From Candidatus Hodarchaeaceae archaeon (GTDB taxonomy: Archaea; Hadarchaeota; Hadarchaeia; Hadarchaeales; Hadarchaeaceae), in the NCBI GenBank assembly GCA_030018135.1, contig JASEGJ010000019.1, forward strand, positions 1 to 20,406: DNA of 20,406 nucleotides, given 5' to 3'. Each line of letters begins with the position of its first letter. The stretch's first letter is position 1. The position numbers were made by a program, and so were the translations under genes. The notes beneath the pieces were generated by a model. The model worked only from the letters and a program-made list of their open reading frames with translations. It made no database searches and had not been told where the DNA came from. Below are positions 13,521-16,825 of the stretch, one piece after another.

Positions 13521-14729
13521 CTATATCACGGCCAAAAATAATGGCAGGGTATCCTCATCCCACACCTCAACGCTTTTGGGGTACTTCCTGTGAGGTTTCC
13601 CTGCTTTCACCTCTATTTTCAAACCATCCGCCACGCAATCTATTTCGTACGAATTTCTGCAGTAGAAAACTTCCCCAAATTTTCCGAGCAAATGCGCCTG
13701 AACCACCCACTCGTATAAAGCACTCCTCAGAAAATCTTGCCCGCTCCAAGAAGACAAGACCCAGGCTATGAAAGGATCGGTAAAAAATATTTTCTTCTCT
13801 TTTCTGTGGAAAATTTTCTTCCCTTCCTTGAAAATTGCCAAATCTAAAACGAGTAGATTTTTTAGTAACTCAAGATATTCCGCCACGGTTTTATAAGAAT
13901 ACCCGGAGGTGTCCTCAGATATCGTGGTGTAGCTGAGGGGAGAAGGGGCTTTTTTGAATATGGAAGAAAATATTTCCCTCGTCAAGGAGACACTCCTCCC
14001 TGCCCTCAGAATCTCCCCCTCAAACGCCCTTATGAAATCCTCTGCCGCCCTTGGATCATCGTTTATGGAGAGCGGGAATCCGCCTTTTTCCAAATACCTT
14101 TCAAACACTGGTTTTATCTCTTCTTCGTGGAGAGCAGCTTTTTTCATATCCCTGTGCATATCTCCAGTGATTTTTACCTTCATGCCGTGGACTTCCAAAA
14201 ATTCCCGAAAACTCAGGGGACGAACCGTTATCTCCCTTCCCATGCCCCTCCGTCCGGGAAAGAGCTCCACGTCCCCTCTCAGTTTTAAAGAGGAGGAGCC
14301 CGTCACGGTCAACACATCATCTTTGAATGTTCCCAAGTCTACGTATCCTTTTACCACCCTCCACCAGCCCTTCACCCCAGTAACTTCGTCCAAAAAGATG
14401 AAGCTGGAGCCATGCCCGAAAGATTTTCTAAATTCTAAATAGCCGTCCACAACTTTTCTCAACGAGTACGCATCTGGAGAAAAATCGCAATTGAAGTAGA
14501 ATATTCTCTCCGCATCCACTTTCTCCAGCAGCTTGTTGATCAAGAGTTTCAATCCTGTGGTTTTACCCACTTGCCTTGCCCCTATTATGAAGTTCAGCGA
14601 GAAGGGCTCCAACGGGATACTTTCTATCCACTTCGGCACCCACCTGAGTTTCATTCCCTTCCATTTCGCTAGGTGGTAGTCTTCTTCCCCTTTCCACCAA
14701 GCGTTGTGTCCAACAATCAGGTTTTTCAT
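13521..14729 (-). CDS. AAA_14/DUF4143 (COG1373) ATPase
   Basis: Walker A GARQVGKTT, Walker B IFLDEVT, TGSSS, PLSFREF, GGFP, KIFFTDP, EID...IEVK. Visibly AT-richer than its neighbours; TTTATAA about 25-30 nt upstream suggests a leaderless transcript. Confidence 0.9.
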   Translation of the reverse strand: MKNLIVGHNAWWKGEEDYHLAKWKGMKLRWVPKWIESIPLEPFSLNFIIGARQVGKTTGLKLLINKLLEKVDAERIFYFNCDFSPDAYSLRKVVDGYLEFRKSFGHGSSFIFLDEVTGVKGWWRVVKGYVDLGTFKDDVLTVTGSSSLKLRGDVELFPGRRGMGREITVRPLSFREFLEVHGMKVKITGDMHRDMKKAALHEEEIKPVFERYLEKGGFPLSINDDPRAAEDFIRAFEGEILRAGRSVSLTREIFSSIFKKAPSPLSYTTISEDTSGYSYKTVAEYLELLKNLLVLDLAIFKEGKKIFHRKEKKIFFTDPFIAWVLSSWSGQDFLRSALYEWVVQAHLLGKFGEVFYCRNSYEIDCVADGLKIEVKAGKPHRKYPKSVEVWDEDTLPLFLAVI

Positions 14730-14828
14730 AGCAAAAGTTTTATTTCTAATGCCTTATAAATATTTAGAAGTTTGAGTTCTATTATTGGAGGGGGGAGCGC
14801 CTCGATTTGGATGCATCTACCTATTTGA

Positions 14829-15045
14829 TTAAGCCGGATCTAACTTTTTCAGCCTGTGGCGCCGCTTCCCTCGGGCAACCACCCAAAATCCCTTCAGGTT
14901 GTCGGTCACCAACTTGGCCCCGCTGGCGAGGGCTGTAGCGCCGATCGCGTAGTCCCGCACCCTCTCCTTGAAGTCCCACCTCCCCACGCTGCCTTAGCGG
15001 TCGCCCTAGCCACCCGAGCATAGAGGGGTGCGACCTCAACGAGGT
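14829..15045 (-). pseudogene. vapC: vapC (PIN) C-terminal fragment, frameshifted
   Basis: NLVEVAPLYARVARATAKA / VGRWDFKERVRDYAIGATALASGAKLVTDNLKGF matches the PIN D-x2-I-x-ATA...LVTxN pattern. Confidence 0.6.
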
Positions 15046-15161
15046 TCCTGCGGGTTTGGATGGGACTTTGGACCGGTGGAAAAATCGGCGATAGCCTTTT
15101 GCGCTCGCCCAATTTCCATATTTTACGGAAAGACTTAGATATCGGACGCTATTTCCATGCA

Positions 15162-15430
15162 GTGACCCCTCCCCTCGCTTTCGCAAGGGGCTTCCACCCT
15201 TCGCTCGTGCCACGCCCCTTCGCAGGAAGCGCAGGTTTGCCCTCGCTACCGGAAGGTCGCGAGGTTGCGCATTCTCAACGCCAGCACCTTTCACTCAGCT
15301 TTCTCCACAGGAGCCCGCTGGAGGTGCGAACGCCCCACGTGCGCTCAAGGGCTCGGCCACTGCTGACTGGTCGGTTCCAGTCGAGCCCCTACTCCGGACG
15401 TGTAGCCCGGGGCCCGTTTGGCTTTCGCCG
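15162..15430 (-). mobile_element. IS605/IS1341 right end with tnpB 3' tip; putative omegaRNA (reRNA) region
   Basis: Ends in GAAGCCCCTTGCGAAAGCGAGGGGAGGGG-TCAC (subterminal hairpin plus TCAC). Begins with AKRAPGYTSGVGA, resembling archaeal TnpB C-termini; several internal hairpins. Confidence 0.65.
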
Positions 15431-15475
15431 TGAAGAAGTCGGTTTCGGTTGTTATATCGCTTTCGGGGAGAGAGG

Positions 15476-15790
15476 TCACCCCGCCGAGAACGCGATGCGG
15501 GCGCCGGCCAGTGCGAGCACGATCGCGAGGGCCATCGAGGCCAGCGTCTCCGCCTGCCTGTGCCCGTAGGGGTGCCCCCTGTCCGCCCTGCGCTTGGATA
15601 CCGTCAATCCCGCGAAAACGCCCGCGGATGTCGCGGTGTCCGAGAGCGCATCCACGCCGGCCGCGATGAAAGCGATGCTGCCGAACAGCACGCCCGCCAG
15701 AATCTCCGCGGCCCCCATGACCGTGGTCGTCATCGCGGAGAGGACGGTAACCCGCTCCGCCGAATTCCCTCAACGGCACGGCTCACCCCA
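15476..15790 (-). pseudogene. Cation diffusion facilitator (FieF-like) N-terminal fragment
   Basis: GVLFGSIAFIAAGVDALSD...SKRRADRGHPYGHRQAETL; only about three TM segments before the stop; the 5' end is out of frame. Confidence 0.8.
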
Positions 15791-15873
15791 ATAAAAATTG
15801 TCCGCGATTCCCTAAAGGGCTATCCGCTGCGCGACGATTTTCGCCCGAGGGGCCAGCGGAACATCGTTCGGCT

Positions 15874-16272
15874 GTCACAGCTGTGACGTCGGGGCAGCGC
15901 CGCGGATGTCACACCTGTGACACGACGCGCGCGATTTTGCCCGCTTATAAACGACCTCCACCCAAAGCCCTCGCGGGCTATGCCGAACTCGTATCTGATC
16001 GTCTACGACATAAGGGAGCTCGACTGCGGGACGAGACAGCGGGTGAGCCGGCGCCTCAGAAAAATCCGCGCGGTGAGGCTTCGGCAATCGGTGTGGGAGT
16101 CGAGCAGACTGGCGGAGCTGAAGAACCTGGCCGACTCGATCGGTCTGGCCGGCGGGAAGGCGTTGGTGTTGGAGAAGCGAACAGTCCACTTGTCACACCT
16201 GTGACATCGGATGCCCGCGCTGGCGTCACACCTGTGACAGTGGCGATGGTGCAGCGCCGTCACACCTGTGAC
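15874..16272. repeat. Five 14-bp palindromic repeats GTCACA(G/C)CTGTGAC flanking a small gene
   Basis: Copies at 15874-15887, 15908-15921, 16192-16205, 16225-16238 and 16259-16272; unique spacers of 20, 19 and 20 nt. Confidence 0.95.
15980..16204 (+). CDS. Solo Cas2-like (ferredoxin-fold) protein, 74 aa
   Basis: MPNSYLIVYDI...RQRVSRRLRKIRAVRLRQSVWE matches the Cas2/VapD/PaaX-central signature (YDI; R-x-Q-x-S-V-F/W-E). TTATAAA at 15945-15951; the stop lies inside a repeat. Confidence 0.75.
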   Translation: MPNSYLIVYDIRELDCGTRQRVSRRLRKIRAVRLRQSVWESSRLAELKNLADSIGLAGGKALVLEKRTVHLSHL

Positions 16273-16419
16273 ATCGCGCGAGCCGAGTGTGCCCAAAAAC
16301 AAAATTCCCGTGTGCGAGGGACCGAATTTTGTGCCGGAAACTTAAATTCGCGCGAAGGACAGCGCGGGGCAGCACAACAATCGAGGCATCCCGCGCAGGC
16401 GCCGCCGATCCGCGCGCGC

Positions 16420-16825
16420 CCGCCGACGAGCGAGATCGCCCCCGCGAGCGCGATTCGACGGGCGCCCTCGAGCTTGGGCGAGAACTCGAGCGCGAGCCTC
16501 CGGGGGTCGAAGCGCAGCAGGCCGACCACCTGACCGCCCACCACGACCTCGTCCGCCCTGTCCAGCGCGGGCAGGCGGTTGAGCACCACGAGCTTGTCGG
16601 GCGGGAAGAGCGGCCCTGCCGCCCCAAGGCCGAACTGTTTCGCGACGGTCGAGAGCAGGAGTTCGAGGTCGCCATCAAAGGCCGAAAATCGCCCGGCGGG
16701 GTCAGCGCCACCTCCCCCGCCCCGGAGCCGCATTTGTCGCACGCCTTACCCAAGGGCGGCGGGTTGCAGCTGGGGCACCAACCTAGGCCAAACCTGCCGA
16801 GTATGACCGGCCCTCCGCGGCGCAT
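16420..16825 (-). pseudogene. N-terminal fragment of archaeal PAPS-reductase/PUA-family protein; frameshifted and truncated
   Basis: LG...WCPSCNPP.LGKACDKCG...VALTPPGDFRP, then a frameshift at about 16680, then FDGDLELL..V.KQFG..LVVLNRLPALDRADEVVVGG...PKLEGARRI. No catalytic domain follows. Confidence 0.7.

Follow-up and report, generated by a model that had tools for sequence, protein, structure and literature searches.

Cas2 is known as a sequence-blind structural partner of the Cas1 integrase, binding prespacer DNA without sequence specificity, and relatives of Cas2 are known as RNase toxins. Among mobile elements, mobile insertion cassettes (MICs), e.g., MIC231 of Bacillus cereus, are non-autonomous units that combine insertion-sequence ends with a non-transposase passenger gene, and members of the IS66 family have GTA-type ends and produce 8-base duplications. 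Papillomavirus E2 and EBNA1 have dimeric ferredoxin-like DNA-binding domains that recognize palindromic sites of 12 to 18 bp, often in arrays. Here we compare these systems with a locus in the 20,406 nucleotides (nt) of contig JASEGJ010000019.1 of a Hadarchaeota genome (hereafter the window), where a gene for a minimal Cas2-fold protein of 74 amino acids (aa) lies among short palindromes. The window is contig C10 of genome G000, which comprises 1.11 Mb in 45 contigs, is 93% complete, and has a GC content of 55%; we refer to other contigs, genomes, and homolog loci by C, G, and L numbers.

We interpret positions 15856 to 16295 of the window as a decayed, non-autonomous IS66-type element carrying a sequence-specific DNA-binding Cas2-fold protein and the operators of that protein, an explanation that we consider probable, if by no means assured. 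The region would be an old, immobilized Hadarchaeota element of ∼0.5 kb, either a miniature inverted-repeat transposable element (MITE) or a "mobile insertion cassette" of IS66-family, ISH10-like insertion sequences. The finding is real and unusual: each clade in a family of 66- to 96-aa Cas2-fold proteins is tied to a short palindrome of its own, and in at least one lineage the gene is the only cargo of a half-kilobase element that actively transposes; the same holds for a second, look-alike family. The original prediction, which was made from the DNA alone, had not recognized this as a described system, and it does appear to be undescribed; nothing like the arrangement is described in the literature searched, which included passages of a 2026 survey of archaeal insertion sequences but no supplementary files. 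The prediction had offered three readings (a toxin with RNA antitoxins, a cassette bounded by recombination sites, and an array of phased operators), of which the cassette and operator readings are each partly right.

The locus contains the following features (window positions; copies on other contigs and the active copies from metagenomes are described below).

15856 to 15872, + strand: left-arm remnant (ggaacatcgtt...), homologous to the left arms of copies on C22 and C6 and to the active element from about its position 66 on
15873 to 15888: palindrome R1, TGTCACAGCTGTGACG, in its 16-bp form; core at 15874 to 15887
15888 to 15907, + strand: spacer 1, the 20 nt between the cores of R1 and R2
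15907 to 15922: palindrome R2, TGTCACACCTGTGACA, ending 22 bp upstream of the TATA box
15945 to 15979, + strand: archaeal-type promoter and leader (TTATAAA at 15945 to 15951, CCTCCACCCAAAGCC, GCGGG, then ATG)
15980 to 16204, + strand: minimal Cas2-fold gene, 74 aa
16191 to 16206: palindrome R3, TGTCACACCTGTGACA, encoding the last residues and the stop codon; right end of a 336-bp unit duplicated on C44
16224 to 16273: R4 (16224 to 16239), a 20-nt spacer, and R5 (16258 to 16273), resembling a second, gene-less palindrome-spacer-palindrome doublet
16274 to 16295, + strand: right-arm remnant (atcgcgcgagcc...), the counterpart of ...CACGCGAGC, which in active copies adjoins the inner side of the right terminal repeat; here that repeat has degenerated

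The Cas2-fold protein and its palindromes

With up to two mismatches allowed, GTCACASCTGTGAC matched five sites in the window, each on both strands (15874, 15908, 16192, 16225, and 16259); 0.17 matches were expected by chance, and none of 100 shuffles reached 10. The form GTCACA(G/C)CTGTGAC is exact on the + strand at all five sites, so the repeats that had been seen to bracket the 74-aa open reading frame (ORF) are real, and, as had also been noted, the TGA of the gene (16202 to 16204) is supplied by the third of them. In their 16-bp form the sites read (T/C)GTCACA-SS-TGTGAC(A/G), with two 7-bp arms and two central bases. Their centers are 34, 284, 33, and 34 bp apart, leaving spacers of 20, 19, and 20 nt between the 14-bp cores.

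Regularly spaced palindromic repeats beside a Cas2-fold gene might suggest a solo Cas2 with a CRISPR array, degenerate or in miniature, whose 19- to 20-nt segments had been acquired as spacers, but this reading is effectively refuted. The window repeats are not a CRISPR array: they are 14 to 16 bp long, compared with ∼23 to 55 bp in CRISPR arrays, where unique spacers of uniform length come from foreign DNA, and the segments between them are conserved or of variable length. The spacers had been described as unique; spacer 1 is in fact common to four copies. It is identical on C44 and is found again on C22 and C6, where identity over the common 75 to 77 bp is 91% and 83%, respectively. Spacers 1 and 3 both contain GCAGCGCC, and R4-spacer-R5 is a diverged second copy of R1-spacer-R2. 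The spacers of relatives measure 19, 43 to 46, or 57 nt, compared with 19 to 20 nt here. None of the three window spacers had an exact match in a viral contig collection (exact matching only), and two of the repeats lie upstream of the promoter of the gene. Genome-wide, Cas1 was found only as a C-terminal fragment on C40, and no Cas2 match exceeded the cut-off. The C40 fragment (C40:15831-16019; locus L059, ORF 1507-1842) is a lone 111-aa ORF that covers Cas1 positions 217 to 282 of 283 and looks like the remnant of a lost CRISPR-Cas locus. For annotation, this cautions that "solo Cas2" calls in Hadarchaeota, which one public source applies to several close relatives of the window protein, are not CRISPR remnants.

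The AlphaFold2 (AF2) model of the 74-aa protein (predicted local distance difference test score [pLDDT], 92.5) has the secondary structure β1 (residues 5 to 10), α1 (16 to 28), β2 (32 to 35), β3 (38 to 41), α2 (44 to 56), and β4 (60 to 65). In a Foldseek search of the PDB, ranks 1 to 12 were all Cas2 (TM score, 0.46 to 0.69), and the top four matches of the family profile to PDB sequences were also Cas2 (E = 0.002 to 0.017). The curated models stayed below threshold: PF09827 (CRISPR_Cas2) scored 17.2 bits against a cut-off of 23.8, TIGR01573 scored 12.7 bits against 24.5, and PaaX_M (E = 0.038) and ChrB_N (E = 0.11) were likewise below cut-off; the weak Pfam matches of the protein are to exactly three Cas2-like families. 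PADLOC Cas2 models gave E values of 5e-4 to 0.03. The label "Cas2-like" is thus right at the level of the fold but not at that of the curated Cas2 families, and from the model and profile comparisons we are confident that the protein has the Cas2 (ferredoxin) fold yet is not a CRISPR Cas2. Among known systems, it is closest to Cas2 and the Cas2 relatives VapD, the PaaX middle domain, and the ChrB N-domain. It aligns with Cas2 over β1-α1-β2, where both the strand 1 YD and an aromatic residue in strand 2/3 correspond, and is of similar size. Unlike Cas2, it falls below every curated cut-off, lacks the C-terminal segment of most Cas2 proteins, has neither cas1 nor a CRISPR array beside it, and is partnered by a short palindrome that covaries with the protein. 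We know of no Cas2 with a protein-covarying short palindrome as its DNA partner. In the family alignment D10 is invariant and Y9 and W39 are nearly so, and the three align with Y9, D10, and F37 of the Cas2 nuclease SSO1404, which passages of PMC3351183 give as key residues, D10 being the catalytic metal-binding one. The window protein is strongly basic (isoelectric point, 10.9), with nine Lys or Arg residues within positions 16 to 35. Prediction of a two-copy complex scored 0.27 against a mark of 0.42, a value that weighs neither for nor against a homodimer.

Based on sequence searches, the protein belongs to a small, separate family that has been seen almost exclusively in Hadarchaeota. A word-indexed search returned 25 close relatives, of which the named ones are Hadesarchaea or Hadarchaeum, and a profile search of 1.84 billion representative proteins gave only 80 matches at an E value of ≤1e-3, all but one of them 37 to 109 aa long. 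Of 66 genomes of the phylum, 26 contain the family, and 24 of these belong to the window's own taxonomic family (23 of 45 genomes besides G000). In several genomes the copy number reaches two to four, and a number of copies are broken (e.g., on C23, G027:C29, and G038:C17). G000 itself holds a 99%-identical second gene copy on C44 and a 39%-identical paralog on C11. No member was found to be encoded in IMG/VR (0 of 104 candidate stretches confirmed), and the ESM Atlas gave weak leads (0.79) to 70- to 74-aa archaeal proteins, some with ChrB_N matches.

The palindromes accompany the family and diverge with it. At least two related 16-bp palindromes surround the gene at 20 of 32 homolog loci according to a strict script (three of the 32 probably duplicate another record), and degenerate palindromes were seen by eye, at a looser mark, at several further loci. 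Half-sites differ by clade (TGTCACA, TGACATA, TGAYACA, TGTCAAA, TGTCTCA, TGTCTTA, and TGTCCTA) and map cleanly onto the maximum-likelihood protein tree, in which two subfamilies split with 100/100 support. The residues of helix α1 pair with half-sites as follows.

RQR.S: TGTCA[CA]A (window clade, and L022 and L044 of the other subfamily)
RL[RK]V[SC]: TGACATAG
RLR.N: TGAYACAC
RRRVN: TGTCT[TC]A
RRK[IM]N: TGTCCTA

The C11 paralog (95 aa; C11:21111, locus L007, 21055-21650) follows the same pattern: it is surrounded by eight copies of a palindrome of its own, TGTCTTAGGTAAGACA, of the form TGTCT(T/G)AGGTAAGACA. One of the eight precedes the ATG, another falls within the 3' end of the gene, and the remaining six are downstream. 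The genome-wide count of the window palindrome, one of the checks that had been proposed, ties it to the window-clade gene: there are 17 copies in G000 and 9 in G027, which both have that gene, and 0 to 5 in the other genomes of the 66, with a reversed-pattern control giving 0 in 65 of 66. In G023 and G024, which are 78% and 75% complete, there are five and four window palindromes, and the window-clade gene was not detected. Positions vary among clades, with sites upstream of the TATA box in the window clade and, in several others, either overlapping the ATG or separating it from the TATA box; in every clade with sites, a further palindrome follows or covers the stop codon. In relatives, the spacing varies between 16 and ∼100 bp. 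The idea of phased operators is therefore supported insofar as the palindromes covary with the protein, but there is no constant phasing. Each type of palindrome also occurs singly or in clusters in intergenic regions distant from the gene.

From this covariation, the protein most likely reads its own palindrome. The 16-bp palindromes (7-2-7, TGTCACA-SS-TGTGACA) on both sides of the gene would be its cognate double-stranded DNA sites, bound by a dimer through the very basic helix α1, with one half-site per subunit. Binding beside its own promoter would lead to autoregulation, and the sites near both ends of the element may help or control mobilization by a transposase supplied in trans or, alternatively, may promote recombination between palindromes. 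E2 and EBNA1 offer an analogy for such binding, as they have the same order of secondary-structure elements and the basic first helix of the window protein could likewise serve as a recognition helix. No E2 or EBNA1 structure was among the Foldseek matches listed, and nothing points to common descent. If the protein does read its palindrome directly, the Cas2 fold joins the folds with sequence-specific DNA binding, and the pair would be among the smallest self-contained protein-site pairs, complete with natural specificity variants.

Two features make double-stranded DNA a likelier target than RNA: the predicted transcript does not include two of the window sites, and the site variants that recur have no compensating changes. 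An RNA-acting system would have the palindromes form transcript hairpins that the protein binds or cuts, for translational autoregulation, mRNA processing, or a toxin-antitoxin system like type III or CreTA. Such a system could account for the one palindrome over the ATG and the other directly after the stop codon in several clades and in the second family described below, and for R3 covering the stop codon in the window; moreover, some Cas2 and VapD proteins are RNases according to passages of PMC3351183. We nevertheless find it improbable. R1 and R2 are upstream of the TATA box and so outside the predicted mRNA, the recurrent variants TGTCTGAGGTAAGACA and TGATACACGTGTTTCA would put uncompensated G-A or U-U mismatches into the stem, and a stem of 7 bp closed by a loop of 2 nt is sterically unfavorable. 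The toxin-antitoxin reading of the original prediction, with antitoxin RNAs derived from the repeats, fails on the same grounds and on a further one. Unlike in type III (ToxIN-like) or CreTA systems, only the 16-bp palindrome recurs, and the units between palindromes differ rather than being copies of one antitoxin repeat. Scanning the window for Rfam families and tRNA genes gave no match.

IS66-type elements carrying the gene

A metagenome scan returned 32 loci, about two-thirds of which are near-identical copies of one element in unrelated contexts; at least 10 of the 32 are cut by a contig end, as is usual for repeated DNA. In two metagenomes, the module is the sole gene of a 495- to 555-bp element that has inverted ends of 14 bp (GTAYGTATTTAGCT) and is flanked by 8-bp target duplications. 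From the left, this element consists of GTACGTATTTAGCT, ∼62 nt, R1, 19 nt, R2, the TATA box and leader, a 73-aa gene, R3 over the stop codon, 43 nt, R4, 13 nt, and AGCTAAATACATAC; the long version differs from the short one in one extra spacer-plus-palindrome unit after R4. The 11 complete copies (495 to 555 bp) are 96 to 99% identical. Eight have perfect 8-bp target duplications and one more matches at 7 of 8 bp, and the ORF is intact in seven copies and broken in four. Differences from the consensus among active copies (6 synonymous and 15 nonsynonymous) are uninformative, as expected for young transposon copies.

The ends also identify the machinery. The 11 complete metagenome copies and a copy on G027:C39 carry the ends GTACGTATTTAGCT and GTATGTATTTAGCT, which match those of an IS66-family element in G031, and the same termini (≤1 mismatch) occur in 35 of the 66 phylum genomes. 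In G031 these termini enclose an element of 1.4 kb with one ORF, which encodes an IS66-family transposase (DDE_Tnp_IS66, E = 5.9e-35), 41% identical to the ISH10-family transposases of haloarchaea, which are its closest named relatives. G000 has an IS66-family (ISH10-like) transposase gene split over three frames (C29:1191-2488, - strand) and two 119-bp MITEs with the same ends (GTAYGTATTAAGCT; C22:31129-31247 and C43:30410-30528), both with perfect 8-bp target duplications (GAAAATTC and CAGTTTTC). The IS66-type duplications measured 8 bp, possibly 9 bp in one case. The element thus has the termini GTAYGTATTTAGCT and the 8-bp duplications in common with the single-ORF ISH10/ISBst12-like group of IS66; unlike these, the window type has no transposase, and canonical TnpB (PF05717) has no sequence match to the Cas2-like genes. 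We considered whether the protein could be a form of the IS66 accessory protein TnpB and rejected this, as PF05717 gave only an unrelated 11.9-bit match in the genome and is not among the Pfam matches of the protein; the Vibrio IS66 match is a single-ORF element.

In most respects the active relatives conform to MITEs and MICs: they have the ends of a resident insertion sequence, 8-bp duplications, no transposase gene, many near-identical copies, and gene-less and decayed derivatives. Unlike in other such elements, the passenger is a tiny putative nucleic-acid-binding protein with its own sites near both ends. The cassette that had been proposed is therefore borne out as mobile DNA, but its active ends are IS66-type inverted repeats and not the palindromes.

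A second gene family occurs in the same setting. Elements of 416 to 475 bp with the same IS66-type ends, L097 (G012:C87:6058-6532) and L098 (G019:C74:8704-9119), carry a 74-aa gene that begins MANVRHY(V/M)IYDF... (MANVRHYVIYDF...), and further members are at loci L108 to L117. The palindrome of this family, TGGCGAACGTTCGCCA, covers the ATG and recurs after the stop codon, behind a promoter and leader like those of the window family; a variant palindrome, TTGCGAACGTTCGCAA, accompanies the N-termini VANVRN or IANVRN. The second family is present in 14 of 66 genomes, and at least one IS66-type end is kept at 7 of the 12 loci examined. Its homology to the window family is not established, as profile comparison gave an hhalign E value of 0.043 (probability, 1.2%) and one of three members had a weak Cas2 Pfam match. 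That this layout is found again with a second family of small genes suggests that the cargo is functionally tied to the element and not random.

The palindromes also invite comparison with REP sequences and their RAYT genes (REPtrons). In both, a gene is flanked by its own palindromes, paralogs have different ones, and single palindromes, doublets, and clusters are scattered through the genome. Unlike RAYT, the window protein is not an HUH/Y1 (IS200/IS605-like) transposase, and the ends of the active unit are of the DDE type, with target duplications. REP copy numbers reach hundreds; the palindromes here number in the tens. REPs are 20 to 40 bp long according to the abstract of PMC3733652, compared with 16 bp here.

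The window copy, its duplications, and competing explanations

The window copy aligns to positions 66 to 417 of the active element with 77% identity over 358 bp. Its left IS66-type terminal repeat would be expected ∼60 nt further left than the left-arm remnant and is no longer recognizable. The copy appears to be fused to the gene-less R4-R5 doublet, which is 74% identical to the C22 doublet and whose preceding spacer retains "cccgcgctggc" of the left arm. Two gene-less copies, each consisting of left arm, R1, spacer, R2, and right arm, are present elsewhere in G000 (C22:4193-4303 and C6:1041-1151; 114 bp, 84% mutual identity), and C23 has a deletion derivative of the element.

Two recent duplications in G000 do not fit simple transposition. 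C10:15871-16206 is equal to C44:37611-37946 from R1 through R3, with three differences in 336 bp and nothing shared beyond, and C41:13824-13927 matches C44:8536-8640 at 99% over 105 bp, with the other palindrome family and again ending exactly at palindromes. Because both duplications end at palindromes, recombination there, whether enzymatic or by short homology, also moves these segments, which restores part of the idea that the palindromes are recombination sites.

These junctions are the best case for treating the Cas2-fold protein as a site-specific nuclease or recombination factor, with the palindromes as cleavage or crossover sites and cassettes that move in a homing- or integron-like manner, independently of the IS66-type ends. 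The two duplications involve two palindrome families and end at the outer edges of the palindromes, long and short metagenome elements differ by exactly one spacer-plus-palindrome unit, the gene-less C22 and C6 copies are the expected residue of recombination between R2 and R5, and the (near-)invariant Y9, D10, and W39 are those that align with SSO1404. We regard this explanation as quite unlikely all the same. Ordinary recombination between identical 16-bp direct repeats, or slippage there during replication, accounts for the junctions with no enzyme needed; there are two cases only; no hybrid sites or excised circles were seen; and complete palindromes persist beside the gene, whereas insertion destroys homing sites. 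Further, Cas2 catalytic residues are also conserved where nuclease activity is dispensable.

It is important to note the observations that weigh against a decayed IS66-type element with a DNA-binding protein. The conserved Y9/D10/W39 triad fits a nuclease equally well as a binder. No palindromes were found at four loci (L014, L021, L028, and L037), and among the pairings of helix and half-site only RQR.S with TGTCA[CA]A is phylogenetically independent, so that shared descent alone could explain the codivergence of protein and site. The window copy belongs to the transposon family on the strength of the 77% identity over 358 bp just given, as no terminal repeat near it was found at ≤3 mismatches and no target duplication was recognizable. 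Only 12 of 66 genomes yielded the IS66 transposase, though bins are incomplete and insertion sequences assemble poorly; G027, despite its complete element, was not among the 12, and neither were 11 of the 14 genomes that carry the second family of small genes. Finally, other clades of the family have no IS66-type ends, and one large clade sits in conserved synteny behind a ∼107-aa gene. These last two points imply that the protein-palindrome module is older than the transposon and separable from it; the pair is an older portable module that was picked up by one transposon lineage.

The same points can be taken further, to a protein that is simply an autoregulated transcription factor controlling a host regulon and that was carried along on a MITE in a single lineage, the downstream arrays and gene-less copies being by-products of no importance for mobility. 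Besides the clades without IS66-type ends and the subfamily that is stably syntenic across several genera, this would explain the palindromes of each type in intergenic regions away from the gene and the clades in which a palindrome overlaps the ATG or separates it from the TATA box, the classic position of a repressor. We think a host regulator unlikely. Two dissimilar small-gene families with the same layout, both within IS66-type ends, would be improbable as random cargo; a patchy (26 of 66 genomes), multicopy, and often degraded family shows the pattern of selfish DNA, which is unusual for a host regulator; and the genes near dispersed sites, judged by inspection of ORFs only, showed no common function.

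A bolder version of the favored reading, possible but doubtful in our view, is that the Cas2-fold protein is a programmable, sequence-specific recognition factor for 16-bp palindromes that serves a transposon, either marking or synapsing subterminal sites for a DDE transposase acting in trans or itself cutting or recombining there. If so, it would represent a second, independent integration partnership of a Cas2-like protein with a transposase-type enzyme, beside Cas1-Cas2, and a new minimal DNA-binding scaffold with a readable code from helix α1 to half-site. Direct reading of the palindrome would by itself already offer an example of a Cas2-like protein in partnership with the machinery of mobile elements, with implications for the recruitment of Cas2 to CRISPR adaptation.

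Neighboring genes and dispersed palindromes

At 15 of 33 loci, a conserved ∼107-aa "HYQT" protein (M.LIHYQTLE...) is encoded directly upstream of the Cas2-fold gene (L022, L029 to L038, L041, L044, and L045; in G000, C11:23253-23579), and a palindrome separates its stop codon from the ATG that follows. A LigD-type primase-polymerase gene and an Ldh_2 gene often lie nearby. We considered the HYQT protein as a key to the system, but it does not explain it: no Pfam or PADLOC family matched, the AF2 model (pLDDT, 82) has a generic alpha/beta fold whose best PDB match (E = 0.028) is not convincing, and the gene is not in the window module.

The promoter and leader pattern (TTTATAAA, 3 to 4 nt, CCTCCACCCAAAGCC, 4 nt, GGCGGG) is kept at the nucleotide level in front of proteins that are only 40 to 80% identical, and in relatives it precedes both family members and the ∼107-aa gene. 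In G000 the strict motif occurs only in the window and at C44:37685.

Two divergent records touch the limits of the family. The member at L014/L021 (G044:C13:9846-10049) lacks a possible start codon (ATG, GTG, or TTG) in the interval from the preceding stop codon to its conserved N-terminus. L015, an AT-rich record titled uncultured Pseudomonadales bacterium, encodes a longer bacterial protein with 49% identity to family residues 5 to 39; this match sits inside an apparent PaaX-like architecture, which shows an N-terminal motif common to the family and to the Cas2-like domains of regulators.

Gene-less clusters of TGTCTTAGGTAAGACA, the palindrome of the C11 paralog, are found at C11:31525-31590, C11:97709-97778, C41:13693-13927, and C44:8443-8640. 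A third over-represented palindrome, TGATACAnnTGTATCA, occurs seven times in G000, mostly at gene boundaries (C9:2981, C9:14881, C11:31449, C16:879, C16:4000, C24:2503, and C43:49287). It resembles the sites of another family clade, and no cognate gene for it was found in G000. Perfect copies of TGTCACACCTGTGACA lie in the coding sequence (as VTPVT) of two purple-acid-phosphatase paralogs (C1:11355-11370 and C27:293-308), and the C44 copy of the module adjoins a third such paralog (C44:38034-39422). In G018, G023, and G027, the palindrome occurs as "VTAVT" in a conserved gene judged by eye to be MoaA-like. We set the VTPVT and VTAVT palindromes aside as coding coincidences, a step that is not safe, since a perfect 16-mer is improbable by chance in 1.1 Mb.

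Both genes flanking the window module are truncated, as the original prediction had stated.

15476 to 15733, - strand: fragment of a cation-efflux (CDF) gene on the left, matching only positions 9 to 89 of 198 of the Cation_efflux profile
16226 to 16825, - strand: frameshifted N-terminal fragment of a PRK13795-like gene on the right, with the first ∼121 of ∼635 residues

The right-hand fragment matches PRK13795 positions 4 to 48 and 46 to 121 in two reading frames, and homology stops near 16445. PRK13795, which the profile library names "hypothetical protein," we take to be PAPS-reductase-like. Further left, between an AAA_14/DUF4143 ATPase gene (13521 to 14729, - strand) and the CDF fragment, the ∼0.7 kb from 14800 to 15475 contain only ORFs without a Pfam family and may be further gene debris.

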